From Thermoanaerobaculia bacterium (lineage in GTDB: Bacteria > Acidobacteriota > Thermoanaerobaculia > UBA5066), in assembly GCA_963719225.1 (NCBI GenBank), contig CAVRAY010000001.1, positions 1,472,001-1,536,000 on the forward strand: DNA of 64,000 nt, given 5' to 3'. This document shows positions 5,502 to 48,381 of this stretch, one piece after another. Both the position numbers and the translations under genes were made by a program. The notes under the pieces were generated by a model. The model was given only the letters and a program-made list of their open reading frames with translations. It was not told the origin of the DNA and ran no database searches. Numbering within the stretch: the stretch's first letter is position 1; every line of letters starts with the position of its first letter.

Positions 5502-10852
<5,351 letters not shown>

Positions 10853-32612: not shown

Positions 32613-34022
32613 TCAGGGGAAGATTCCGAGCTCCATGTAGCTCACGGCGATCTTGTCGATCGCCGAGATGAACGCCGCGGTGCGGAGATCGGCTTTCGGG
32701 TGTTTTTTCTGCACGTCGCGGATCTGCCGCCACGCGACGGACATGGTCTCCTCGAGGCCCGAATTGACGAGATCTTCCTCCTCGGCCCCGTGAATGACGA
32801 GCTTGCGCTCGCCCGAGGAGAAGTGCTTGCCGGTCGCCCCTTCGATGGACTTCACCATCTCCTCGGCCCGCATCTCCTCGAAGCGCTTCTCCATGCGCCC
32901 GAAGCGCACGTGCGAGAGGTTTTTCAGCCACTCGAAGTACGACACGGTGACGCCGCCCGCGTTCAGGTACATGTCGGGGATGACGCAAACGCCTTTCTGG
33001 CGGAGGATCGCGTCGCCGTCGGCCGTGATCGGGCCGTTCGCGCCCTCGGCGATGATCTTCGCGCGGACCTTGGACGCGTTCGCGGCCGTGATCACGTTCT
33101 CGAGTGCGGCCGGGACGAGGATGTCGCAGTCGAGAAACAGGGCTTCCTCGCCGGGGAGGTCCGCCGCGCCGGGGAAGCCGGTGATCTTCCGCGTCTCGGC
33201 TCGGTGGTTCATGACCTCGGCGACGTCGAGGCCTTTCGGGTTCGCGATCGCGCCTTCCCACTCCAACAGGCCCACGATCACGGCACCGCCCTCCTGGAGA
33301 AAGCGCGCCGCGTGTGACCCGACGTTGCCGAGGCCCTGCACGACGACGCGCTTGCCCGCGAGGCCGCCGGAGAGGCCCAGCGTCTTGAGCAGCGCGGAGT
33401 CCGTGAGCGCCTCCTTGACGCCGAAGAAAACGCCGCGGCCCGTGGCTTCCTTGCGCCCGCGGATGCCGCCCTGGCTGATCGGTTTGCCCGTGACGCAGCC
33501 GATCGCGTCGATCTCGCCGGGGTGGAACTGGGCGTACGTGTCGGCGATCCAGGACATCTCCCGCGGGCCCGTTCCGTAGTCGGGAGCGGGCACGTCGATC
33601 CCGGGCCCGATGAAATTCTTCTTCGTGAGCTCGGCCGTGTAGCGTCGCGTGATGCGCTCGAGTTGTTCGACGGACACCTTTCGCGGGTCGATCTTGATGC
33701 CGCCCTTCGCACCGCCGAAGGGCACGTCCACGATCGCGCATTTGAACGTCATGAGGGCCGCGAGCGCGAGGACCTCGTCTTCGTTCACCTCCGGCGAGTA
33801 CCGGATTCCTCCCTTGACGGGCAGCTTGTGGTGGCTGTGCTCGGCGCGCCAGGCCTCGATGACCTCGTATCCGCCCCCCTCCTTTCGGACGGGGAAACGA
33901 AACTTGTAGATGCTGTTGCAGACCTTGATCTGATCCAGAAGTCCAGGCGGATAGTCGAGAAAGCTCGCGGCGGCGTCGAAATTCCGGTTCACGGTCTCCA
34001 GGAATCCGTTGGCTGCGGTCAT
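32613..34022 (-). CDS. Glutamate dehydrogenase 1 (Glu/Leu/Phe/Val family, animal-like C-terminal insert)
   Basis: [46 protein letters not shown]. Confidence 0.93.
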
Positions 34023-34202
34023 CGATCCTCCGAATCCCGAGTGTAGGCGAGGTCCTCGGCGGGGTCGAGGTGATCCATATGACTCATGACGGACGAGGGG
34101 ACGGGCCCCTACGATGTCCATGATGAGCCGGTTGGAGGAGGGCGCCGTGTCCCAGGTCTCCGGCCGGGAACAAAAAGACTGGACAAAAGAGGGAGACTCC
34201 CG

Positions 34203-35486
34203 ATGAAAAGTGCGTTCAATCCGTTCGAAATGGCGCAGGCGCAGTTCGACAAATCCGCGGACATCCTGGGGCTCGACGACGCCTCACGGGAGCTCTTGAG
34301 GTGGCCTCTCCGCGAGTTCCACTTCGCGATTCCGGTGCACATGGACGACGGCCGCGTGAAGGTGTTCCGCGGGTTCCGCGTCCAGCACAACGACGCCCGA
34401 GGCCCGTCCAAGGGAGGAATCCGGTTCCACCCGCAGGAGACGATCGACACGGTTCGGGCGCTCTCGATGTGGATGACCTGGAAGTGCTCGGTCGTGGACA
34501 TCCCGCTCGGCGGGGCGAAAGGCGGCGTCATCTGCGATCCCCACAACCTGAGCGCGCGCGAGCAGGAGCAGATCTGCAGGGGCTGGATCCGGCAGATTTC
34601 GCGGAACGTCGGCTCGGCACTGGACGTACCGGCGCCCGACGTCATGACGACTCCCCAGCACATGCTCTGGATGCTCGACGAGTTCGAGGTGATCCACGGC
34701 GGCAGGGAGCCGGGTTTCATCACCGGAAAGCCGGTGGGGATGGGAGGCTCTCTCGGCCGGACCGAGGCCACGGGCTATGGCCTCGTCTTCGCGCTGCGCG
34801 AGGCGCTCAAGCTCCTCGAGCTCAAGGTCGACAGGACGCTGGCGAGCGTGCAGGGCTTCGGAAACGTGGCGCAGTACGCCATCAAGCTCTACATGAAGCT
34901 GGGAGGGAAGGTCGTCGCCGTCTCCTCGTGGGACCAGGCCGACCAGACTTCCTACTGCTTCCGTAAGGAGACCGGGGTCGATCCCGACGCGCTCCTCGGC
35001 ATCACCGACCGCTTCGGGGGCATCGACAAGGGGAAAGCCGCGAAGCTGGGATACGAGGTCCTTCCGGGCGACGCCTGGATCGAGCAGAACGTCGACATCC
35101 TGATGCCCTCGGCCATCGAAAACCAGGTGACCGCGGAGACGGTGGGGAAGATCAAGGACCGCGTGAAGGTGATCGCCGAAGGCGCGAACGGCCCCACGAC
35201 TCCGGAGGCCGACAAGTGCCTGCAGGCGCGGGGCATCTTCGTCATCCCCGATTTTCTCGCGAATGCCGGCGGCGTCACGTGCAGCTACTTCGAGCAGGTG
35301 CAGAGCAACATGAACTATTTCTGGGAGCAGGACGAGGTTCTCGGGAAGCTCGACGTGAAAATGACTTCGGCTTTTCATGCCGTGGCCGACCTGGCGAAGA
35401 AGCAGAAGCTCTACATGCGGGACGCGGCCTACGTGATCGCCGTGAGCCGTGTCGCGAAGGCCTGTCACGACCGCGGGTGGGTCTGA
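34203..35486 (+). CDS. Glutamate dehydrogenase 2 (Glu/Leu/Phe/Val family)
   Basis: [51 protein letters not shown]. Confidence 0.93.
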
Positions 35487-35503
35487 ACGGCGCCGAGCCG
35501 CCG

Positions 35504-37258
35504 ATGACGAACGCGACAGAGCCGGCGCTTCCGCTCTTCGACCGGAGGCTCTTCGACGGGAAGGAACCCGCGACGCTGATGGGCGAGGGGCCGGTCGGAG
35601 GAAAGGCCGCCGGGTTGATCCGGATCCGCGACACCCTTGCCTCGGCCTTCCCGGGCGACCTGCCGGAGTTCGAAGTCTCGATTCCCACGATGTCCGTGAT
35701 CACGACCGAGCGCTTCGACCGGTTCATGGAAGAGAACGGACTCGGGGAGATTGCTTTTTCGGGCGAGAGCGACGACGCCATCGCCCGCGCCTTCCTGAAG
35801 GGCGATTTTCCCGCCGACCTCGTGGGTGATCTGCGGTCCCTCGCCGATCACATACACGCGCCTCTCGCCGTGCGCTCCTCGAGTCTCCTCGAGGACGCCC
35901 TGAATCGACCCTTCGCCGGCGTGTACGCGACGAAGATGATTCCGAACAACGAGCCAGAGGCGGACGCCCGGTTCCGGAAGCTGGCCGAGGCCGTGAAGCT
36001 GGTATGGGCTTCGACCTACTTCCGGGCTGCGACGGCCTACCGCTCGACGGTCGACGCCGCACTGCGGAAGGAGAAGATGGCGGTGCTTCTGCAGGAGGTC
36101 GTGGGCCGCCGGCACGGAGATCGCTACTACCCCGACATTTCCGGCGTGGCGCGCTCCTACGGCTTCTACCGCTTCGGCTCGGCCCGCCCCGAGGACGGGA
36201 TCGTGCTCCTCGCGCTCGGCCTCGGGAAGACGATCGTGGACGGAGGGGCGTCCTGGACCTACTCTCCCGCCCACCCGCGCGCGCCCGCGCCTTTCGCCTC
36301 GACCTCCGACCTCCTCAAGAGCACGCAGACGGAGTTCTGGGCGGTGAACATGGGCAAGCCCCCGGCCTACGATCCCGTGCGCGAGACGGAATACCTCGTG
36401 AGAGGCTCCATCGTGGACGCAGAAGAGGACGGCACGCTGCAGGCGACCGCCTCCACGTGGAACGCCGCCTCGGAGAGACTCGTGTCCGGAACGGGCACGC
36501 CCGGGCCGCGCGTCCTGAATTTCGCGTCGCTTCTGATCCACGATCAATACCCGCTGAACGACGCGGTCAGATTGCTCCTGTCGGCCTGCGGGAGCGCGGC
36601 CGGCGGGCCGGTCGAGATCGAGTTCGCCGCGACGCTCGAGCCTCGTCGGGAGCCGCCCTTGAGGATCGGTCTTCTCCAGGTGCGCCGCATGGCGGTCTCG
36701 ACGGAGAGCGTCGACGTCGACGCCGCCGCTCGGTCCGGCCTCAGGGTCCTCCTCTCGTCCGACCAGGTCATGGGGAACGGGATCGTCGACGGGATCCGCG
36801 ACGTCGTCTACCTGCGGCCCGATCGCTTCGACGCGCGCCACTCGCGCGCGATCGCGGAGGAGGTCGCCGCGAGAAATCGTGTGCTGCTCGAAGAGGGCAC
36901 TCCGTACATCCTCATCGGGTTCGGACGGTGGGGAAGCGCGGATCCGTGGCTCGGAGTTCCGGTGGCATGGGGAGACGTGGCGGGGGCCAGGGTCCTCGTC
37001 GAGGCGTCACGGCCCGAGCGAGGGATCGAGATGAGTCAGGGTTCGCACTTCTTCCACAACATCTCGAGCTTCGGCGTGAGCTACTTCTCCTTGCCGCCCG
37101 AGGGCGCCGGCACGCTCGACTGGGAGTGGCTGGAAAGCCGGCCCCTCGTCGCCGAGAGTTTCTTCCTCCGCCACGTCCGTGCGGCCGGACCGCTGCGCGT
37201 GGAAGTCGATGGTCGCGCCGGACGTGGGATCATCTGGAGGTGCGACGAGGAGACATGA
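35504..37258 (+). CDS. PEP-synthase-like ATP-grasp (PPDK_N) protein A, no added sensor domain
   Basis: GGKAAGL, VRSSSLLED, FAGVYAT, EKMAVLLQ, GLGKTIVDG, IEFA..LLQVR; C-terminal GRWGS / SQGSHFF domain. Confidence 0.88.
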   Translation: MTNATEPALPLFDRRLFDGKEPATLMGEGPVGGKAAGLIRIRDTLASAFPGDLPEFEVSIPTMSVITTERFDRFMEENGLGEIAFSGESDDAIARAFLKGDFPADLVGDLRSLADHIHAPLAVRSSSLLEDALNRPFAGVYATKMIPNNEPEADARFRKLAEAVKLVWASTYFRAATAYRSTVDAALRKEKMAVLLQEVVGRRHGDRYYPDISGVARSYGFYRFGSARPEDGIVLLALGLGKTIVDGGASWTYSPAHPRAPAPFASTSDLLKSTQTEFWAVNMGKPPAYDPVRETEYLVRGSIVDAEEDGTLQATASTWNAASERLVSGTGTPGPRVLNFASLLIHDQYPLNDAVRLLLSACGSAAGGPVEIEFAATLEPRREPPLRIGLLQVRRMAVSTESVDVDAAARSGLRVLLSSDQVMGNGIVDGIRDVVYLRPDRFDARHSRAIAEEVAARNRVLLEEGTPYILIGFGRWGSADPWLGVPVAWGDVAGARVLVEASRPERGIEMSQGSHFFHNISSFGVSYFSLPPEGAGTLDWEWLESRPLVAESFFLRHVRAAGPLRVEVDGRAGRGIIWRCDEET

Positions 37259-40200
37259 CCTCACCGGACAGCCCCGTCGACACGATTCTTGACGCCCTGC
37301 AGGAACGCGCCAAGGAGCTCACCTGCATCTACCGGGTGAACGAGATCTGCAATCGGCCGCAGGCCTCGCTCGACGAGATTTTCCGGGACGTCATCGACAT
37401 CCTCCCGCCGGGCTGGCAATACCCGGCCGAGTGCCTGGCGCGGGTCACGGTGGACGGCGTGGTCTACGAGCCGCCGGGTTTGATCGGCACCCCATGGGTT
37501 CAGGTGGCACCGATCCGTGTGCAGGGTCTGGTGATTGGCAGCGTCGAGGTGTTTTACGTGAAGGCGATGCCGGCCTCCGACGAGGGTCCGTTCCTGAAAG
37601 AGGAGAGGAAGCTCATCGACACGGTCGCCGAGCGCCTCGGGCAGCTCCTTCTGCACCGCAAGCTGCTGGACAGGATCCAGGGCCGGCAGGAGGCGTTCGA
37701 AGGCCTCCCGGCGACGCCGCGCGGGAACTGGTGGATCATCATCGACTTCCTGCGCAAGACCGACGAGCACCTCCTGATGAGGGTCTCGCGCCGGATGATC
37801 AACTACCTCTGCTGGAACGGAATTGCCGAGGCACGGGACCTGCTGCCGCACTTCACCGCGGGCCGGAGCGGCGGGCGCGAAGAGAGCGGAGGCGAGAACC
37901 GGCCCCTGGAGCGGCGCGGCATCGACTCTTTGATCAAGGTCGCCGACGAGGTCTTCCGCATCGCTTCCCAGCACCTCGCTTCCGACGAGATCCTCTCGTG
38001 CATTCAGAAGTGGATCAGGGACGAGAAATCGGGCTTTCTGGTCGAGGCGGTCGAGAACCAGGGAACGCCTTTGATGGAGATTGCCCAGGCGCTGGGCCGC
38101 TTTCACAACACGGCCGTCGACGACCACGAGCTGTCGCGCACCGTACAGGTGGAATTGAGGGTCTCGTTGATCCGCCGGTTCCTCACCGATGACCTCGACT
38201 TCCTCGGCACGGCCAAGAACTACATCGACGTGGGCGACTTCTACGAGCTTTCCCGCCGTGTCATCTGTCCCCCCAGGAGCCACGGCAAGCTCGGCGGGAA
38301 GAGTTCGGGCCTGTTTCTGGCGGCCCAGATCGTCCGCAAGTCGCCCGAGTACGCCGACGCGCTCGGACGCATCCGGATCCCGAGAACGTGGTACGTCACG
38401 TCGGACGGAGTTCTGAACTTCATCGAGTTCAATCAGCTTCAGGACGTCTACAATCGGAAGTATCTGGAGATCGAGGAGGTGCGGCGCGAGTACCCGCACA
38501 TCGTCCAGGTCTTCAAGGACTCTCATTTCTCGCCGGAGATCGTCAAGGGCCTGTCCGTCGCGCTCGACGACCTCGACGGACGCCCCCTCATCGTCCGCAG
38601 CTCCAGCCTCCTGGAGGACCGCATCGGGTCGGCGTTCTCCGGCAAATACAAGAGCCTCTTCCTGTCCAATCAAGGCACGAAGAGCGAGCGCCTTAGTGCG
38701 CTGATGGATGCCATCGCCGAGGTTTATGCCTCGATCTTCGGGCCGGATCCCATCGAATACCGCGCCGCGCGCGGGCTCCTGGACGTGCACGAGGAGATGG
38801 GCGTGATGATCCAGGAGGTCGTGGGCAGCCGCGCCGGCAAGTACTTCCTGCCGACGTTCGCGGGGGTCGCCTTCTCCAACAACGAATTCCGATGGTCGGC
38901 GCGGATCAGGCGAGAGGACGGTCTCGTGCGTCTCGTGGCGGGCCTCGGGACGCGCGCCGTGGACCGCCTCGGCGACGACTACCCGGTGCTGATCGCTCCG
39001 GGCCAGCCCGGACTGAGGGTGAACGTCACGCCCGACGAGGTGGTCCGCTACTCGCCGAGGAAGCTGGACGTCATCAACCTGGAGTCGCGGCGTTTCGAGA
39101 CGGTCGCCTTGAAGGATCTCCTCGCGGAGTGCGGCCCGGAGATCCCCGGCGTTCAAAAGATCGTCTCGCTCGCGGATGAAAGCGGAATTCGCCGCCCCCT
39201 CCTGATCGACTGGGCGTCGGACGCGGACCGCCTCGTCGTGACCTTCGACGGGCTCATCGAGTCCACTCCGTTCCTCACCCAGATGCGCGCGCTGCTCCGC
39301 CTTCTGAAGGAGAAGACCGGAGGGCCGGTGGACATCGAATTTGCTTCTGACGGAAAGGACTTCTATCTCCTGCAATGCAGGCCGCAGAGCTTCTCGGAGG
39401 ATGTCGCGTCGGCGCCGATCCCGCAGGACCTGCCGGCCGAGAAGCTGGTCTTCGAGGCGCGGCGCTACGTTTCCAACGGCCGGATGCCGGACATCACCCA
39501 CATCGTCTACGTCGACCCCGAGCGCTACGCGGCGCTCGCAGACGAGGAGGATCTCAGGCGCGTGGGACGGGCCGTCGGCCGGCTCAACAAGGTTCTACCG
39601 AAAAGTCAGTTCATCCTCATGGGCCCGGGCCGCTGGGGCAGCCGCGGCGATGTGAAGCTCGGCGTCCCCGTCACCTACTCCGACATCAACAACACCGCTG
39701 CCCTCATCGAGATCGCACGGAAGAGGGGGAACTACGTCCCGGACGTCTCCTTCGGCACGCACTTCTTTCAGGATCTCGTCGAAGCCTCCATCCGCTACCT
39801 CCCGCTTTTTCCCGACGATCCCGACATCGCCTTCCACGAGAAGTTCCTGCGGGAGTCCCCCGATATCCTGGCGGACGTCGCGCCGGAGTTTGCGGACCTG
39901 GCGGGAGTCGTGCGTGTCATCGACGTGCCGCGCGCCACGGGAGGCCTCGTCCTGCGCGTTCTGCTGAACGCGGACCAGGACCGTGCGGTCGGCTTCCTGT
40001 CGAGTCCCGGGGTCGGAGCCGACACGTCGGTGGAAAGGAAGCGCCTCCCGGAGCCGGCGCCGCCGGAGGACCACTCGCCCTGGCGTCTGCGGATGGCCGA
40101 GCGCATCGCGGCGGTGGCCGACGTCGCGCGTTTCGGCATCAAGGGGCTCTATCTCTTCGGCAGCACGAAAAACGGCACGGCGTCGCCCGGCAGCGACATC

Positions 40201-40446
40201 AATCTCCTCGTCCACTTCTGCGGCACTCCGGAAATGCGCAGCGATCTGCTGGCCTGGCTTGAAGGCTGGAGCCTGTGCCTGTCCGAGATGAACTACCTGC
40301 GCAGCGGCGTCGCGACCTCGGGCCTGCTGGACGTCCACGTCGTGACGGACGCGGAGATCGAAAGCGCCTCGGGTTACGCCGCGAAGATCGGTGCCGTCAC
40401 GGACGCGGCGCGGTCCCTGACCCTTGGAACGAAGGCTTCAGAATGA
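37255..40446 (+). CDS. PEP-synthase-like ATP-grasp (PPDK_N) protein B with N-terminal sensor-like and C-terminal nucleotidyltransferase-like domains
   Basis: LQERAKELTCIY N-terminal domain; GGKSSGL, VRSSSLLED, DIEFA..LLQCRP; SFGTHFF; LFGSTKNGTASPGSDINL. Confidence 0.88.
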   Translation: MTSPDSPVDTILDALQERAKELTCIYRVNEICNRPQASLDEIFRDVIDILPPGWQYPAECLARVTVDGVVYEPPGLIGTPWVQVAPIRVQGLVIGSVEVFYVKAMPASDEGPFLKEERKLIDTVAERLGQLLLHRKLLDRIQGRQEAFEGLPATPRGNWWIIIDFLRKTDEHLLMRVSRRMINYLCWNGIAEARDLLPHFTAGRSGGREESGGENRPLERRGIDSLIKVADEVFRIASQHLASDEILSCIQKWIRDEKSGFLVEAVENQGTPLMEIAQALGRFHNTAVDDHELSRTVQVELRVSLIRRFLTDDLDFLGTAKNYIDVGDFYELSRRVICPPRSHGKLGGKSSGLFLAAQIVRKSPEYADALGRIRIPRTWYVTSDGVLNFIEFNQLQDVYNRKYLEIEEVRREYPHIVQVFKDSHFSPEIVKGLSVALDDLDGRPLIVRSSSLLEDRIGSAFSGKYKSLFLSNQGTKSERLSALMDAIAEVYASIFGPDPIEYRAARGLLDVHEEMGVMIQEVVGSRAGKYFLPTFAGVAFSNNEFRWSARIRREDGLVRLVAGLGTRAVDRLGDDYPVLIAPGQPGLRVNVTPDEVVRYSPRKLDVINLESRRFETVALKDLLAECGPEIPGVQKIVSLADESGIRRPLLIDWASDADRLVVTFDGLIESTPFLTQMRALLRLLKEKTGGPVDIEFASDGKDFYLLQCRPQSFSEDVASAPIPQDLPAEKLVFEARRYVSNGRMPDITHIVYVDPERYAALADEEDLRRVGRAVGRLNKVLPKSQFILMGPGRWGSRGDVKLGVPVTYSDINNTAALIEIARKRGNYVPDVSFGTHFFQDLVEASIRYLPLFPDDPDIAFHEKFLRESPDILADVAPEFADLAGVVRVIDVPRATGGLVLRVLLNADQDRAVGFLSSPGVGADTSVERKRLPEPAPPEDHSPWRLRMAERIAAVADVARFGIKGLYLFGSTKNGTASPGSDINLLVHFCGTPEMRSDLLAWLEGWSLCLSEMNYLRSGVATSGLLDVHVVTDAEIESASGYAAKIGAVTDAARSLTLGTKASE

Positions 40447-43438
40447 CTCCCTCGTTCCTGCGGCCGTTCATCTTGATGAGGACGGGGCGCTCGAACGTCA
40501 GGTGCCTCACGCACGACTTCGCGCTCGCGACCGCCTGCGCCGAGAGCCAGTCCCAGTCGACGAAGCCGTCTCCGAGCTCCGGGTTGACGGTGAAGTAGCC
40601 CGTGTCGTTCGCGGTGAGGTTCTGGAAGAAATGAGTGCCCTGTGAGGGCGTCACGCGGAAGTCCTTGAAGCCGGTCTCGACGATGACGCGCGCGCCGGAG
40701 ATCTGGTCCCACGTGACCGGAATTCCGAGGAACGGGTCCGCCGACCCCCAGCGACCCACTCCGATGAGGACATAGGGAGTTCCCCGGCTGGAAAGGTGCG
40801 CGTTGAAGGCGGCGACCTCGTCCGCCGCGACACGGCTTTTCGAACGGTCGAAGCGGTCGTAATCGACGACGACGAGGTCGCGGACGTCTTCGATGCGGCC
40901 GTTCCCGAGAACAGTCGCGCTCTGACAGACGAGGTCCTCGCGCGCGACGTCGCCGATCTGGAGCTCGGTCAGCTCCCTCGAGAGAGCCAGCGGCCGGAGC
41001 TGCAGGAAGCCGAACTCCTTCAGCGCGCTCTCCGGCTTCAGGAGGTCGACGGCGAACTCGATCTCCACCGGGGCTCCCGTGCCGCGCGTCGCGACCCGGA
41101 GCAGCGCGGCCAGGATCTCGGCCAGCGGGAAGGTCTCGTGCTTGAGGATCGGAGCGAACGTGACGAGGCGGATGCCGGGGCGCGAGATGCCGTCGTAAAC
41201 GGCTTCGTTTTCCGGGGAGTACGTGGAGGCCACGAGAGCCAGCGTCCCATCCTCTTCGGCCGCCTCGAGGCCGTGGCGCTCGAGCACGAACTCGTGGAGG
41301 GCGGGCCGCGCCTGCGAGTTCTCGAGGTCCAGGGCGAAGAACTCCCGCTGCGAATTCTGACGGATGTCCTCGACGGACGAGAACTGCACGAGGTGGCGGG
41401 GGTATTTCGGGCAGAACCTCACGCAGGCCTCGCCGTCCACGACGCTTTCCCCGAAGCCGAGGGCGACGGCCGCGATGCCGTCCTCCGTCCGGATGGGCGA
41501 CGACGGATAGAAGTTGTGCGACCGCGCCACGCCCGAGAGGGACGGGTAGAAGCGACCGCCGTGCGAGGCCCCCACGATCCGCTGGAGGACGACGGCCATC
41601 TTTTCCTCTTCGAGACGGTAGGGAGTAGCGTCCAGATAGGACTTCGCGCGATGGGAGAACGTGGAGGCGTAGACCCGCTTGATGGCCGCGAGGAGCTGGG
41701 AGAGGCGGATCGCGCGGCTGCCGTGGTTGTTCGGCAGCATGTACGTCTCGTAGACGCCGGCGAAGGGCTGGTACTGCGAGTCCTCGAGAAGGCTCGAGGA
41801 GCGCACGGCGATCGGGTAAGGAACAGCCCTGAGGTACGTATCCAGGTCCTGCGCGGTCTCCTCGGGGAACGCGGCCGCGTGGAAGCGCCGGCGGATGGCC
41901 GTGTCGTCGTCCGTCTCGATCGCGAAGTCTCGCAGGCCGTTCTCGTCGAGGAACCGGTCGAAGAGGTCCGAGCCGAGCACGACGGCGGAGGGAACGGAGA
42001 TGTTGACGTTCTGAAAGCGGCTTCGGACCCGGTCGTCGTCCAGGAGCACGTTGACGAACGCGAGGCCGCGCGCCTTGCCGCCGAGGGACCCGCCGCCGAG
42101 GCGCCAGAATCCCGGCGAGCCGTCGAACGTGGCACGGTCGAAATCGGCCACGATGCGCCGGCCACGTTGCGTGCGGTACTCCTGGATCGAGCGGATCAGC
42201 TCCCGCCTCAGGTTCTCCAGGCCGCCGAAGTCGGCGACCGTGCGCGGCCGGAGGCTGTGGGCGAGAGCGAACTCGGTGCGGGCCTTCAGCCAGGTCGAGA
42301 AGTGGTTTCGCTCGCCGTGATAGGCGAGGCAAGAGGCGGGAACGGTGTGGAGCATCTCCTCCAGCGCCTTCAGGTCGTGCGCCCGCCCCACCTCGGTGCC
42401 GTCGGGCAGGCGGAACAGAAAATCGCCGAAGCCGAAGTTCTCGACCATGAAATGCCGGAGCTGCTGGAGGAGGACGGGCGAGCCCTTCAGGTGAAAGGTG
42501 GCGCCGACCTCTTTCGCGAGCGCCGCGTTCTCCTGGCGGCTGGACTGGAGCATGAACGGAATGTCGGGCTGCTCCTCGCGCACCCGTCGCGCGAGCTCCA
42601 CGCCGGCCAACGGGGTGAGCGTCCCGCCCCGCGGGAACTCGATGTCGGAGATGATTCCCAGGACGTTCTCCCGGTAGGTCTCGAAGAGGTCCCAGGCCTC
42701 CTCGAAGGTGCGGCAGAGAACGATCTTGGGCCGCGCCTTGAGCCGCATGAGCTTGTGCGAGAGGTTGATTCCCTCCGGCGCGAGGTTGTGCGACTGCTTG
42801 ATCACCTCGGTGTAGAGCACCGGCAGGAACGAGGAGGCGAAGGGCACGCTGTCCTCGACGAGGATGATCGCCTGAACTCCCTTCACGCCCGTGTCGTGCG
42901 CGAGGTTCATGCGGTCCTCGACCAACTTCACGATCGCCAGGAGGATCCGCACGTCGCCCCGCCAGAGGTAGATCCCGTCGAGGGCGGAGACGTCGTGCCG
43001 CTCGAGGAGGAGGGCGAGCTCGCGGTGGTCGTAGGCGAGGACGACGACGTGGGCTTTCACGCCGGCCTCCTTGAGCCGGCGCGCGAGCGCCGGGGCGTCC
43101 ATGTCGCCCACGTGGAGGGACGTGATGACGAGGTTGAAGCGGGGCTCCGCGCGCGCCCTCTCGAGCGCCTCCTCGCCCGTGGAGACGCGGGTGATGCCCG
43201 GAACGTGCCGGAGGTTCAGCTCGAGAGATTCGGAAAGGATCCGCTCGTTCAGCTGGCCGTCCTCGGCCAGGATGAAGTAATCGTAGAGGCTCGAGACGAG
43301 CAGGATGTCCTGGACCCGGTACTGCATCAGGTCGTGGAACCCGCCCCACGGACTCTCCGAGCGGAGGGACGGGCCGTCCGGGCCTCGTTCGGACATCGAT
43401 GACTCCCCGGGAAGCGGCGTGAAGGAAGAATCCTCCAC
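40397..43438 (-). CDS. PEP-synthase-like ATP-grasp (PPDK_N) protein C with N-terminal receiver-like domains
   Basis: ILLVSS, IILVED, GIISDIEFP receiver-like segments; GGKARGL, VRSSSLLED, EIEFA..FLQLRP; SQGTHFF; start may be the second Met (~43396). Confidence 0.88.
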   Translation of the reverse strand: MEDSSFTPLPGESSMSERGPDGPSLRSESPWGGFHDLMQYRVQDILLVSSLYDYFILAEDGQLNERILSESLELNLRHVPGITRVSTGEEALERARAEPRFNLVITSLHVGDMDAPALARRLKEAGVKAHVVVLAYDHRELALLLERHDVSALDGIYLWRGDVRILLAIVKLVEDRMNLAHDTGVKGVQAIILVEDSVPFASSFLPVLYTEVIKQSHNLAPEGINLSHKLMRLKARPKIVLCRTFEEAWDLFETYRENVLGIISDIEFPRGGTLTPLAGVELARRVREEQPDIPFMLQSSRQENAALAKEVGATFHLKGSPVLLQQLRHFMVENFGFGDFLFRLPDGTEVGRAHDLKALEEMLHTVPASCLAYHGERNHFSTWLKARTEFALAHSLRPRTVADFGGLENLRRELIRSIQEYRTQRGRRIVADFDRATFDGSPGFWRLGGGSLGGKARGLAFVNVLLDDDRVRSRFQNVNISVPSAVVLGSDLFDRFLDENGLRDFAIETDDDTAIRRRFHAAAFPEETAQDLDTYLRAVPYPIAVRSSSLLEDSQYQPFAGVYETYMLPNNHGSRAIRLSQLLAAIKRVYASTFSHRAKSYLDATPYRLEEEKMAVVLQRIVGASHGGRFYPSLSGVARSHNFYPSSPIRTEDGIAAVALGFGESVVDGEACVRFCPKYPRHLVQFSSVEDIRQNSQREFFALDLENSQARPALHEFVLERHGLEAAEEDGTLALVASTYSPENEAVYDGISRPGIRLVTFAPILKHETFPLAEILAALLRVATRGTGAPVEIEFAVDLLKPESALKEFGFLQLRPLALSRELTELQIGDVAREDLVCQSATVLGNGRIEDVRDLVVVDYDRFDRSKSRVAADEVAAFNAHLSSRGTPYVLIGVGRWGSADPFLGIPVTWDQISGARVIVETGFKDFRVTPSQGTHFFQNLTANDTGYFTVNPELGDGFVDWDWLSAQAVASAKSCVRHLTFERPVLIKMNGRRNEGVILKPSFQGSGTAPRP

Positions 43439-43457
43439 GCCGCCTCCGGGGCCTAGG

Positions 43458-44894
43458 TTAGACGAGTCCCTGGTCGATCATCGAGTCGGCGACCTTGATG
43501 AAGCCGGCGATGTTCGCCCCGTTGACGTAGTTGCCGGGCGTCCCGAACTTCTCGGCCGTCTCACGGCAGGCCGCGTGGATCGACTTCATGATGAGATGCA
43601 GCCGGTTGTCCACTTCCTCGCGAGTCCACGAGAGGCGCATGCTGTTCTGCGACATCTCCAGCCCCGAGGTCGCGACGCCGCCCGCATTGGCGGCCTTTCC
43701 GGGCCCGTAGAGAATACCGGCGTCGAGGAAGACCTTCACGCCGTCGAGCGTCGTCGGCATGTTGGCGCCCTCGGCCACTGCGTAGACGCCGCCCCTCAGG
43801 AGGTGGGCCGCGTCGAAGCCGTTGATCTCGTTCTGCGTTGCGCTCGGGAAGGCGCACTGCGCCTTGTGGGCCCAGAGCGGGTTGTGGTCGAGCTTCGGGT
43901 TCACCGGCGTGAAGACGACGCCCTTGTACTTGTCGGCGTACTCCTTGATGCGGCCGCGCCGGACGTTCTTGAGGTCCATCACGAAGGCCAGCTTCTCGGC
44001 CGTGATTCCCGCCTCGTCGTAGATGTAGCCCTCCGAGTCGGAGAGAGTCACGGGCTTCGCCTTGAGCTGCAGGAGCTTCTCGACCGTGTACTGCGAGACG
44101 TTGCCGCTGCCCGAGACGAGACAGGTCTTGCCTTCCAGCGTCTGACCCCTCGTCGCGAGCATCTCGGACGCGAAGTAGACGGCGCCGTAGCCGGTGGCTT
44201 CCGGGCGGATCAGCGAGCCGCCCCAGGAGAGGCCCTTGCCCGTCAGGACGCCGGAGAACTCGTTCCGGAGCCGCTTGTACTGGCCGAACAGGAAGCCGAT
44301 CTCGCGCCCGCCCACGCCGATGTCACCGGCCGGAACGTCGGTGTCGGGTCCGATGTGGCGGAACAGCTCCGTCATGAAGCTCTGGCAGAAGCGCATGACC
44401 TCGCCGTCGCTCTTGCCCTTCGGGTCGAAGTCGGAACCACCCTTGGCGCCGCCCATCGGCAGCGTCGTCAAGGAGTTCTTGAGGACCTGCTCGAAGGCCA
44501 GGAACTTCAGGATTCCCAGGTTGACCGAGGGGTGGAAGCGGAGCCCTCCCTTGTAGGGCCCGATGGCGCTGTTCATCTGGATCCGGAAGCCCCTGTTGAT
44601 TCTGTAGGTCCCCTGGTCGTCCTGCCACGGAACCCGGAACATGAGGACGCGCTCGGGCTCGATGATGCGCTCCAGGACCTTCGCGCTCCGGTACTCCGGC
44701 CGCTGCTCGAGGACGAGCTGAAGCGAGTCTGCAACCTCCTCGACGGCCTGGTGGAACTCGGGTTCGGCCGGATTCTTGGCCTTGACCTCGGCCATCAGGT
44801 TCTTCACATACACGGATTTGGATCCTCCCGTGGGACGCCCCGGCTTTTTCCCGACCTCGACCTCGGCATCGAGGGTCTTGACACTTTCTGACAT
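43458..44894 (-). CDS. gdhA: NADP-specific glutamate dehydrogenase
   Basis: EPEFHQAV, GPYKGGLRFHPSVNL, FLAFEQ, DVPAGDIGVGGREIG, RPEATGYG, NAGGVATSGLEMSQN. Confidence 0.95.
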   Translation of the reverse strand: MSESVKTLDAEVEVGKKPGRPTGGSKSVYVKNLMAEVKAKNPAEPEFHQAVEEVADSLQLVLEQRPEYRSAKVLERIIEPERVLMFRVPWQDDQGTYRINRGFRIQMNSAIGPYKGGLRFHPSVNLGILKFLAFEQVLKNSLTTLPMGGAKGGSDFDPKGKSDGEVMRFCQSFMTELFRHIGPDTDVPAGDIGVGGREIGFLFGQYKRLRNEFSGVLTGKGLSWGGSLIRPEATGYGAVYFASEMLATRGQTLEGKTCLVSGSGNVSQYTVEKLLQLKAKPVTLSDSEGYIYDEAGITAEKLAFVMDLKNVRRGRIKEYADKYKGVVFTPVNPKLDHNPLWAHKAQCAFPSATQNEINGFDAAHLLRGGVYAVAEGANMPTTLDGVKVFLDAGILYGPGKAANAGGVATSGLEMSQNSMRLSWTREEVDNRLHLIMKSIHAACRETAEKFGTPGNYVNGANIAGFIKVADSMIDQGLV

Positions 44895-45220: not shown

Positions 45221-48200
45221 ATGAAACTGCGTTCCCGTCTCGGATTTCCGTTCGCCTTTGTCTCGATGGCGGCCCTCCTTTTATCGGCCGCCCCGGCGCC
45301 CGGCCAGGAGACCACCGGCGGCCTTCAGGGCGCCGTGACCATGAAGTCCGACAAGAGCCCCCTCCCCGGCGTGACGGTGGAGGCCGTTCACGTCCCCACC
45401 GGCACGCGGTTCACGTCCGTGACCACGTCCACTGGACGGTTCACGATCCTCAACGTCCGCGTGGGCGGCCCCTACACGGTGACCGCGAAGATCGCGGGCT
45501 TCAAGACGGAGACTCTCAGGGACATCGACGTCGCCCTCGGGGAAAAGCGCGATCTCGAATTCGAGCTGGAAGTCCAGGCGAGGGCGGAGACCGTCAGCGT
45601 CACGGCCGAAGCGGAGCCGCTCATCAGCCCGAACCGGATGGGCTCCACGCAGTCGGTCTCGCAGAACGAGATCAAGTCGCTGCCGACGATCAGCCGGCAG
45701 TTCCAGGACTTCGTGAGGACGAACCCGTACGCCAACGTGCAGCCCTACGATTCGACGCAGACGGCCATCTCCATCGCGGGGATGAACAACCGGTACAACA
45801 CGATCCAGATCGACGGCGCCGTCAACAACGACCTGTTCGGCCTCGCCGCGACCGGCACGCCGGGCGGCCAGACGAACACGCAGCCCATCTCGCTCGACAC
45901 GATCCAGGAGATCCAGGTCGCCGTCTCGCCCTACGACATCAAGCAGGGCGGGTTCACGGGCGGCGCTATCAACGCGATCACGAAGAGCGGAACGAACGAC
46001 TTCCACGGCTCCGTCTACGGCTCGACGCGGGACGAGAAGTACGTCAGCAGCGACGTCCCGCAGGCCTACGGCGACGCGCTCCACAAGCCGATCGCGACGT
46101 TCGACTCGGACCAGTACGGCGCCCGCGTGGGCGGACCGATCCTGAGGGACAAGCTCTTCTTCTTCGGGAGCGTCGAGCGGAACAAGCTTTCGCAGCCGAC
46201 GGGCGGCTCCGCCGACGGATCCACGAGCAACTCGTACAAGGACCCGGCACAGGCAGCGCTCTTCAAGAGCGTGCTCACCACCAAGTACGGCTACGACCCG
46301 GGCGGCCTCGGGGACTACAACCAGAGGACGAACAGCGACCTGCTGCTCGGTAAGCTCGACTTCAACGCGGCCGCGAGCCACCAGCTCTCGCTCCGGTACA
46401 ACTACGTCGACGCCCTGACCGACACTCTGGGTTCGAGCCGCAGCTTCAACGCCTACGCGTTCGAGGGGGCCGGCTACACGTTCGCCAACAAGACGAACTC
46501 GGGAGTGCTGCAGCTCAACAGTGTCTTCGGCACGAGCTCGTTCAACCAGGGCCGCGTCGGCTACCAGACCATTCGTGACAGCCGGCAGGTGCCCGCGGCG
46601 TTCCCGTCGGTTTACATCTGTGCGACTCCCAACTCGTTCTGCACCGGGTCCAACGCGTACCAGCTGGTCGCCGGGACCGAGCGCTCGTCCGGGGCGAACG
46701 CGCTCAACCAGGACATCTTCGAGGTCACGGACGACTTCACGGTGATCAAGGGCAACCACACGCTAACGATCGGGACGCACAACGAGTTCTTCAAGTTCGA
46801 GAACCTCTTCATCCAGGACATCACCGGGACGTACTTCTTCAACAGCGTCGACGCGCCCGGCGACGCCCACAGCCTCAATAGCGGAAACGCCGCCCGATAC
46901 CAGGTCAAGTTCGCGAACGGGGCCGATCCGCGCCGCCCGACCCAATTCGCCGCCCAGCAGTGGGGTCTCTACGCGGGCGACCAATGGAGAGTCAACGAAA
47001 AGCTCACGCTGACCCTCGGCGTGAGGTTCGATCTCCCGCGGCTCACGGACCAGCCGACGTACAACCCGCTCGTCGACACCACGTTCGGGATCGATACGAC
47101 CGACGTCCCGACCAACAACCTCATGTTCTCGCCTCGCCTCGGCTTCAACTTCAACCCGACCGGTGGCGGCAGGGACCAGATCCGCGGGGGCATCGGCGTC
47201 TTCGCGGGCCGCACACCGTTCGTCTGGATCTCCAACGCCTACGGCGGCACCGGCATCGAGATCACGGGCCTGAGCGCGAGCAACGTCCCCTTCAACGCGG
47301 ATCCCAACAACCCGCCCAAGAACTTCCCCCCGGGACGGCCGCCGTCTCGGTCGACACCGTCGATCCCGATTTCAAGTTCCCCCAGGTTCTTCGCAGCACC
47401 CTGGCGTACGACCGGGAGCTCCCGTACGGGATCCGAGGTACGGTCGAGTTCATGTTCACGAAGACGCTGAAGGACGTCTTCTATTACAACAGGAACAAGG
47501 TCCCGAGCGGGGCCACGACGTTCTACGGATCGCCTGTCTACAAGAACTTCAATTCCGGGTTCTCGAACGTCACGTTCCTGACGAACACGACCCGGGGCGA
47601 GCAGCAGAACCTCAACGTGATGCTCGAGAAGCGCTTCCCCTTCGGCCTCTACGTCAACGGGTCGTACGCCTACATGAACGCGAAGTCCGCGTTCGAGGCG
47701 ACGTCCAGCGTGGCGTTCTCGAACTGGCAGTTCCAGACGACGGACGGCAACATCGATACCCAGCAGCTCACGCGCTCCTTCTTCGACGTGCCGCATCGCT
47801 TCAACATCGTTCTGACGCAGGCGTTCAAGACGGGGCCTCTGCTCCACAACGTCGGGCTGGTCTACTTCGCTCAGTCGGGGCAGCCCTATTCGATCCTGAT
47901 GGGGGGAGACCCGAACAGCGACGGTGGCTTCAGCAACGACCAGATTTTCGTTCCCCAGAACTACAGCGACGTCGTCTGGGCCGGAGCGGGAGCTCCCACC
48001 GAAGACAAGTGGAACACGTTCCTCGCGACGACGGGTCTCGACAAATACAGGGGCCGGGTCGCGCCGCGCAACGCGCTCAGCGCCCCCTGGATCCACACCC
48101 TGGACTTCCACTACGACATCACGCTGCCCATCTCGGTCGTCCAGGTCCAGCTCACGTTCGACGTCTTGAACCTGATCAACCTGATCGACAGCAACTCGGG

Positions 48201-48381
48201 ACTCCTCCGTTACGTCAACTTCCAGACGTACACGGCGCTCACCGCCTCCAAAACCGTCGACGCGGCGGGCAGGCCGACCTACACGGTCAACTCGGGCGCG
48301 CTCGACGAGGGGCGGCAGTACAGCACGAACGACCTCCGCTCGCGCTACCAGCTGAAGTGGGGAGCGCGCCTTTCCTTCTAG
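45221..48381 (+). CDS. Oar-like TonB-dependent receptor with carboxypeptidase-regulatory-like N domain (one frameshift at ~47330)
   Basis: Signal peptide; IDGAVNND, GGAINAITKSGTN; C-terminal ARLSF; frame change at CCCCCCGGG homopolymer. Confidence 0.9.

Follow-up and report, generated by a model that had tools for sequence, protein, structure and literature searches.

Barrel-less dikinase-like proteins pair with specific glutamate dehydrogenase subtypes: candidate phospho-histidine switches from a Thermoanaerobaculia gene cluster

What do three dikinase-like proteins do whose genes lie among those of three glutamate dehydrogenases (GDHs)? The question is raised by a cluster in a 64,000-nucleotide stretch of a Thermoanaerobaculia genome (assembly GCA_963719225.1, contig CAVRAY010000001.1, positions 1,472,001 to 1,536,000 of the forward strand), here called the window, in whose coordinates positions are given. 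GDH controls the flux between 2-oxoglutarate and glutamate, and a link between it and the dikinase-like proteins A, B and C would lie where carbon and nitrogen metabolism meet. An initial annotation had proposed six genes in a fixed order and orientation, gdh1 leftward, gdh2, A and B rightward, and C and gdhA leftward; all were found as claimed. We report here that the pairing is subtype-specific, B and A going with Gdh2 and C with GdhA, and that gdh1 is not part of it. The features to which the text refers are as follows.

gdh1, 34022 to 32613, minus strand: animal-GLUD1-like glutamate dehydrogenase; best solved relatives human and bovine GLUD1 (E 2e-142)
gdh2, 34203 to 35486, plus strand: glutamate dehydrogenase by Pfam, a family-II-like distinct clade; best solved relative 1euz (E 5e-121)
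A, 35504 to 37258, plus strand: 584 aa, the bare core, with ATP-grasp at ∼1–400 and predicted histidine carrier at ∼408–583; accessory to B
His515 codon of A, 37046 to 37048, plus strand: in SQGSHFF; predicted phospho-carrier
B, 37255 to 40446, plus strand: 1063 aa; GAF, helical domain, ATP-grasp, predicted histidine carrier, minimal nucleotidyltransferase
GAF domain of B (residues 10–142), 37282 to 37680, plus strand: assigned by fold match
His836 codon of B, 39760 to 39762, plus strand: in SFGTHFF
Nucleotidyltransferase domain of B, 40066 to 40428, plus strand: Pfam PF01909 above cut-off; a D983N copy
C, 43396 to 40397, minus strand: 999 aa; pseudo-receiver, intact receiver, DUF5752-like helical part, ATP-grasp, predicted histidine carrier (His922)
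Asp251 codon of C, 42644 to 42646, minus strand: canonical receiver phospho-acceptor
gdhA, 44894 to 43458, minus strand: NADP-type family I glutamate dehydrogenase (NCBIfam NF006929, 742 bits, cut-off 536); partner of C

A and B overlap by 4 bp, and the convergent genes B and C share 50 bp at their 3' ends. The operon-like gaps of 17–19 bp in the initial annotation hold for gdh2 and A (17 bp); between gdhA and C, a value of 19 bp requires that C start at an upstream GTG, and its likely ATG, which gives the 999-aa database copy, leaves 61 bp.

What kind of enzyme, then, are A, B and C? They share a core of ∼570 residues (identity 40% between A and C, 27% between B and A, and 31% between B and C), and each matches PPDK_N (Pfam PF01326). 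The AlphaFold2 model of A, built with 129 sequences, has a predicted local distance difference test (pLDDT) score of 93 and comprises two domains. The first aligns with rifampin phosphotransferase (RPH; Z 25.0, root-mean-square deviation (rmsd) 2.8, 285 residues). Over both domains, residues 11–581 align with phosphoenolpyruvate (PEP) synthase (2ols, chain 4–467; Z 24.8, rmsd 4.4, 359 residues), and the whole model also aligns with pyruvate, phosphate dikinase (PPDK; 1dik, residues 6–510). By sequence, A gave weak RPH matches only among solved structures (E 0.03 and worse). K34, R124, E373, Q392, R394 and H515 of A are kept in 124–129 of 129 relatives (H515 in 127 of 129 aligned), the equivalent residues of B, including His836, in 103 of 103, and His922 of C in 110 of 110. 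Pfam, folds and conserved residues together thus indicate an intact ATP-grasp site of the PEP synthase/PPDK kind, as had been annotated.

The second domain of A resembles a phosphoryl carrier. The top listed match of residues 408–583 was the carrier domain of PPDK (2fm4; Z 6.5, rmsd 3.9, 116 of 128 residues), and residues 475–583 matched the related domain of pyruvate kinase (2e28; Z 6.5, rmsd 3.0). In the model the carrier directly follows the ATP-grasp domain, the substrate-binding domain between them being absent. In A, B and C it has the motif GxHFF and is enlarged to ∼175 residues; R475, E500 and GRWGS are further invariant residues in A. No likeness was found when the C-terminal domain of A was compared with the His domain of the genome's own PPDK by hidden Markov models and hhalign, fold comparison alone showing one, and a search of the Atlas with this domain returned unnamed fragments only. 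The middling Z values and lack of sequence signal indicate that the domain is strongly remodelled. In tblastn, A, B and C gave no match to the genome's own PPDK at E 1e-4; because neither this search nor the His profile matched that PPDK, and because the motif is GxHFF, we infer that the three are not of PPDK-derived sequence. The two-domain match to 2ols and the match to 2fm4 rule out a reading without a His carrier domain, and a predicted phospho-histidine carrier is present in cis in all three proteins.

What the three lack is the pyruvate/PEP-binding barrel, a claim of the initial annotation that Pfam and the fold models of A and B upheld: no Pfam match to the PEP-utilizer C-terminal barrel appeared in A, B or C at E ≤ 0.5, and A and C end in the His domain and B in a transferase fold, all barrel-free. 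We strongly disfavour, and give hardly any weight to, the view that they are ordinary PEP synthases or PPDKs. Source names such as ‘pyruvate, water dikinase’ and the PPDK_N matches speak for it; the missing barrel speaks against it, as do scores of 30–51 bits with NCBIfam PEP synthase models whose cut-off is 740, and the presence elsewhere in this 4.75 Mb genome (97% complete) of a complete PPDK, with SHAA motif and barrel. The earlier statement that none of the three is a metabolic PEP synthase therefore stands. NCBIfam models of the RPH, PigC and HpeHI type scored far below cut-off. The family comprises 845 clusters at 50% identity (E ≤ 1e-30), usually mislabelled as PEP synthase. In a quick tree of 65 of 227 cores, A, B and GdhA-linked C formed separate supported clades across phyla, which rules out an origin by local triplication.

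The same folds bear on a second possibility, that the proteins are small-molecule dikinases split between two polypeptides. GDH or another partner would then provide the pocket for the substrate, in the way that HpeH serves HpeI, and a metabolite bound there, such as 2-oxoglutarate, glutamate or ammonia, would be phosphorylated. Two-component dikinases exist, as the accessible part of the report on HpeHI describes (PMC12167813). The nearest folds of A are indeed those of small-molecule dikinases (RPH, Z 25; HpeI, Z 17.8), the invariant R475, E500 and GRWGS of the His domain could form a pocket, and GDH, which with a phosphoesterase makes up the separately encoded partner candidates that recur across phyla, could serve. 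We nevertheless consider this quite unlikely: the histidine is joined to the substrate domain in HpeHI but to the ATP domain here, no neighbouring enzyme for a phosphorylated product recurs, and the receiver, GAF and transferase modules are what one expects of regulators.

These modules distinguish A, B and C from one another. The initial annotation had listed no input domain for A, sensor-like and nucleotidyltransferase-like domains for B, and receiver-like ones for C; that assignment holds, with the amendments that the transferase is altered in this copy and that the receiver of C is a possible acceptor. In the model of B (pLDDT 82), the N-terminal domain has a GAF fold (3cit; Z 13.1, rmsd 2.1, 123 residues; VIA); for the helical domain that follows (∼155–335) no fold match was among those listed in a whole-model search, in which the domain had not been folded in isolation. 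The GAF module recurs on C-type proteins and on histidine kinases. Among 10 long relatives examined, A and B were fused in four, and the GAF module of B was found on C-type proteins in three; some of the fusions may be frameshift artefacts, because the A and B genes overlap here. Near gdh2–B clusters, genes for proteins with the small GAF module of B are followed by a receiver-domain gene (L102:10728-11852, L107:16128-17228, L113:14790-16274), those in L102 and L113 being histidine kinases by Pfam. In C the first receiver has no acceptor Asp and the second has a canonical site, kept among 110 relatives at E181 (110/110), D251 (109/110), S/T285 (110/110) and K304 (110/110), with D182 nearly invariant too. 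Because the receiver aspartate is intact, C has a possible phosphate acceptor in cis. No Pfam match to HisKA or HATPase_c was obtained in A, B or C. The proposal that the acceptor is supplied in trans is consistent with proteins that are barrel-less and linked to gdh, but it has to accommodate a predicted His carrier in cis and, in C, the receiver Asp as a possible acceptor of its own.

Which GDH goes with which protein? As had been annotated, the three GDHs are of visibly different types, being mutually 31–32% identical. All three keep K70, K94, K106 and D146 (Gdh2 numbering), the three lysines and the aspartate of the active site. The Gdh2 clade has support of 100/99 in a tree of 55 of 146 sequences. 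Gdh1 scores ∼478 bits against human and bovine GLUD1 and at most 326 bits against bacterial structures, its alignment with GLUD1 spanning the antenna region, where the insert of Gdh1 is shorter. We surveyed an even sample of 120 Acidobacteriota genomes together with this one (121 in all, G068 and G093 counting only in the denominator), with a cut-off for Gdh2-like enzymes (E ≤ 1e-125) set beforehand; related genomes are not independent, and counts are given without p-values. A Gdh2-like enzyme was found in 34 of the 121 genomes, exactly those 34 whose B row scored 430 bits or more. Thus 34 of 35 B genomes have a Gdh2-like enzyme, the exception (G113) being a weaker B-like row on a 1.8 kb contig, with no Gdh2-like match. 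Receiver-type proteins (C) occurred in 50 genomes, 48 of them with a GdhA-type enzyme, which was present in 57. The short protein A co-occurred with B in 11 of 12 genomes. Among rows with a GDH in view, the nearest one was of GdhA type in 33 of the 37 for C and of Gdh2 type in 25 of the 31 for B. Overall, gdh lay within 3 kb at 61 of 74 family loci, where chance would give well under 1% by rough arithmetic (∼2 gdh genes in 4 Mb).

A broader scan, of the 79 best of 627 loci, covered many phyla and Thermoplasmatota; it is a biased set, comprising the loci most like A. There, gdh was within 1.5 kb at 30 of 35 A+B loci, the other five ending at most 35 bp upstream of A, and near 14 of 35 receiver-only loci (14 of the 29 with 2 kb on both sides). 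In a second phylum (201 genomes, centred on L060, labelled Desulfobacteraceae), 17 genomes had a Gdh2-like enzyme, 16 of them with B, and in 14 of 17 the two were within 1.5 kb. The linkage to gdh across phyla predicted for homologues is therefore strongly borne out, far above chance. The gdh1 gene stands beside such a cluster otherwise only in G136, a genome of the same genus, which rules out a three-GDH cassette as a unit; of the GDHs initially tied to the system, Gdh2 and GdhA are cognate partners and Gdh1 is merely a neighbour here. Across phyla, no further enzyme gene and no conserved regulator gene recurred next to the family apart from gdh and the phosphoesterase described below.

The gene pairing could in principle reflect no more than co-regulation, A, B and C being nitrogen-related signalling enzymes that act on another target, such as a transcription regulator, with no physical contact with GDH. 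Divergent or distant arrangements are indeed common in Bacteroides, where only 13 of 41 genomes have their nearest gdh no more than 1 kb away, and the score for a complex (see below) is weak. We hold this to be improbable all the same, since the subtype-specific co-occurrence persists when the genes are apart and the cluster has no conserved regulator gene.

Structure prediction of residues 343–915 of B with Gdh2 gave a complex score of 0.59, against 0.00 for the best control; at least 66% of contacts agreed between runs, and partner pLDDT was at least 88. Of 157 solved pairs, 116 reach the mark for this score, as do 2 of 215 mismatches. Because scores of 0.60 or below account for 18 of those 116 and for both mismatches, the prediction supports docking of the B core on Gdh2 weakly, docking having been a probable guess already, and the predicted contact is compatible with either direction of control. 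Of the initial view of GDH as partner and acceptor, the partnership thus gains from gene linkage and from this contact; transfer to GDH is not borne out, and some GDH partners are catalytically dead.

Besides gdh, the only enzyme gene that recurs beside the family across phyla encodes a calcineurin-like phosphoesterase (PF00149), and its distribution follows the transferase domain of B. The intact site of that domain (GS, DxD and a third Asp) is present in 95 of 103 family members and disrupted in this copy; the second metal-binding position is Asp in 95 of 103 and Asn in 8 of 103, as in D983N here. Counting only genes followed by 1 kb or more of sequence (13 rows were dropped and one gene was seen twice), the phosphoesterase adjoins 37 of 44 intact transferases, none of 2 degenerate ones and none of 23 B genes that have no transferase domain. 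Four of the 37 are stand-alone transferase genes far from B; at L164-L167 (∼7100-7800) stand-alone nucleotidyltransferase genes form pairs with the phosphoesterase, and the B proteins of those genomes have neither GAF nor transferase domain. Among the 121 Acidobacteriota genomes the phosphoesterase occurs in 15, all with B and its transferase domain. It was not found in this genome, at 97% completeness, nor in G136, both of which have D983N; three other transferase-bearing genomes also have none. The proposed nucleotidylation layer (see below) is likely to be inactive in this genome. Assignment of the domain to MntA of type VII toxin–antitoxin systems was rejected: the domain is fused, NF047752 scored 19 bits against a cut-off of 60, and the cluster has no HEPN-sized gene.

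Reversible inactivation of GDH in B. fragilis was reportedly described by Yamamoto in 1987. A homologue of C was found in 41 of 41 Bacteroides genomes searched, with gdh within 1, 5 and 50 kb in 13, 27 and 33 of the 41 (gene ends estimated). At four Bacteroides loci a maeB-like gene is followed by NADP-type gdhA and then by C, convergent with gdhA, with a second gdh divergent from C; gdhA and C are adjacent or separated by one to three genes (a catalase gene in L088). The title of a 1996 study, the part of it available, refers to trans-acting genes downstream of Bacteroides gdhA. Bacteroides C, which lies downstream of gdhA, is a candidate for that factor. The correspondence is a lead only, because the active fragment, said to measure ∼3 kb, may not cover the whole C gene. 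In addition, eight Bacteroidales loci (L050, L057, L059, L062, L068, L073, L074 and L083) carry tandem receiver-type paralogues, usually one of them GAF-fused, and several of the eight lie downstream of 2-oxoacid:ferredoxin oxidoreductase-like genes rather than gdh. A proteomics table (PMC4539542) lists B. fragilis NAD(P)H-GDH as three two-dimensional gel spots, which would be compatible with modified forms, a weak indication given that PPDK gave four.

How might these observations fit together? The explanation that we favour, and that we rate as close to an even call, is that A, B and C act as switches: they would autophosphorylate on a histidine, dock on their cognate GDH and control it. By analogy with the chemistry of PEP synthase, RPH and VadK, the conserved His would be loaded with phosphate as ATP is converted to AMP and Pi. 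C would dock on GdhA, and B, helped by A, on Gdh2, switching activity; the putative gates are the receiver in C and the GAF domain in B. Control would be exerted through the phospho-His domain, either by direct phosphoryl transfer to GDH or by phospho-dependent binding, between which we divide this explanation about equally. In relatives, the nucleotidyltransferase of B and the neighbouring phosphoesterase may add a layer of reversible nucleotidylation, like GlnD/GlnE for glutamine synthetase.

Several observations weigh against this explanation. The His-domain fold match is middling (Z 6.5), has no sequence signal, and is a likeness at the level of the domain, not residue by residue between His515 and the PPDK His. 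No gdh is near 15 of the 29 fully flanked receiver-only loci, and in the second phylum 12 of 28 genomes with B-like proteins, mostly distant ones, have no Gdh2-like match at the cut-off. Purifying selection still acts on the D983N transferase domain (ratio of non-synonymous to synonymous substitution, dN/dS, 0.14), which argues that it is not simply decaying. Finally, of the 146 GDH-like proteins in family loci, 14 depart from the catalytic set, one conservatively, five in a separate pair of dead paralogues and eight as cognate enzymes; G141 and G077 each have a single GdhA-type copy, in which Gln replaces the catalytic Lys, and an intact C. The cognate GDHs that have lost active-site residues beside intact dikinase-like genes are L143:5226-6551, L148:7086-8420 and those at L028, L029, L031, L034, L075 and L100. 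Such dead cognate enzymes imply that simple on/off control of catalysis is insufficient as an explanation. Tandem GDH-like pairs without the catalytic Lys also occur near gdh2–B clusters (L113:17999-19901, L117:11820-14301, L118:5479-7993).

Dead GDHs kept beside intact kinases, some with both substrate-binding lysines, would fit a reversed direction of control. GDH would then be the sensor, its 2-oxoglutarate, glutamate or NAD(P)H state controlling autophosphorylation of the His, and phosphate would leave through the receiver Asp of C, in a His-to-Asp relay without a classical histidine kinase, or the transferase of B would modify another target. The near-invariant receiver site of C points the same way, as does the occurrence, at a few of the same loci, of the GAF module of B on histidine kinases next to receiver proteins; the predicted contact of the B core with Gdh2 fits either direction. 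On the other hand, C and A have no output domain, and in nine of the 34 Acidobacteriota genomes with Gdh2 and B no receiver-type protein was found (the other 25 have one). Moreover, 132 of the 146 GDH-like proteins keep all four catalytic residues. We regard sensing by GDH alone as unlikely, while giving it appreciable weight. Similarly doubtful is a combined scheme in which GDH, often active and sometimes dead, would both sense metabolites and be acted on by a dikinase-type histidine kinase, with a connection to a receiver Asp through C or to a nucleotidylation writer and eraser through B. This would make the system, from Acidobacteriota and Bacteroides to archaea, the GDH counterpart of the glutamine synthetase cascade, and its C protein the trans-acting factor of Bacteroides GdhA of 1996.

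With regard to the surroundings of the cluster, all five of its genes for which a comparison with G136 was made show purifying selection (dN/dS 0.10–0.20 by simple counting). No sigma-70-like promoter was found in the region, and terminators are not in excess there; an expression search gave shares of 0.05–0.10 in five runs, which we count as no evidence. A fourth gdh lies outside the cluster in the genome. An outer-membrane receptor-like gene (window 45221 to 48381, plus strand) is apparently split over two frames near 47400, a possible frameshift or assembly error.

If the family controls GDH, many annotations would be corrected, dikinase-based signalling chemistry with cognate specificity would be added, and old observations in gut Bacteroides, a trans-acting factor and, reportedly, reversible inactivation of GDH, would acquire a named candidate. 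The present locus is a compact test bed, with both cognate pairs and a non-cognate GDH side by side. We know of no general covalent control system for bacterial GDH. The claim that the dikinase–GDH pairing is uncharacterised was borne out, no description having been found in the literature searched, which did not extend to subscription papers and supplements (e.g. Bacteroides fitness tables). What is new here is the cognate rule, the correlation of writer and eraser with its loss in this genome, and the exclusion of gdh1.

How do A, B and C compare with known systems? GlnD and GlnE form the nucleotidylation cascade of glutamine synthetase, and the likeness lies in a nucleotidyltransferase writer and a hydrolase eraser beside a central nitrogen enzyme; here, in contrast, a minimal transferase is fused to a dikinase core and the eraser is a separate calcineurin-like phosphoesterase, the layer being altered or absent in this genome. 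With PEP synthase, PPDK and RPH (2ols, 1dik, 5hv1/5hv3), the three proteins have in common the ATP-grasp fold, the catalytic Lys/Arg/Glu/Gln/Arg and a swivelling His-type domain; they differ in having no acceptor-binding domain in cis and in a His domain that is enlarged and unrecognisable by sequence. They are not classical histidine kinases, PEP synthases or RPH-type enzymes.

As in HpeHI, according to the accessible part of its description (PMC12167813), dikinase chemistry would be split over more than one protein; there, HpeI consists of just the ATP domain, the His and the substrate pocket being on HpeH, whereas A, B and C hold ATP domain and His together and the proposed partner is a dehydrogenase. 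Control of GDH through protein binding has precedents in the GltAB–GudB counter-enzyme complex (10.1101/2021.04.12.439528) and in HPF–YwlG (PMC9522360), which, as far as the available portions of these reports describe them, involve no ATP-driven phospho-His enzyme and no receiver or GAF inputs. The closest parallel in logic is VadK (Rv1127c), described in the accessible part of its report as a barrel-less, PPDK-derived histidine autokinase (PMC13400623). It phosphorylates itself at His422, and methylcitrate-cycle enzymes whose genes adjoin its own co-purify with it. Like VadK, A consists of an ATP-grasp and a His domain with no barrel, and its gene stands beside that of the metabolic enzyme that it presumably controls. 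By comparison with that description, VadK is a truncated PPDK with methylcitrate-cycle partners, whereas in A, B and C the ATP domain is of the RPH/PEP-synthase type and the His domain has the GxHFF motif; they have GDH partners and receiver, GAF and transferase modules, and fall into three old paralogue clades. A, B and C are thus like VadK in logic but of a different lineage.

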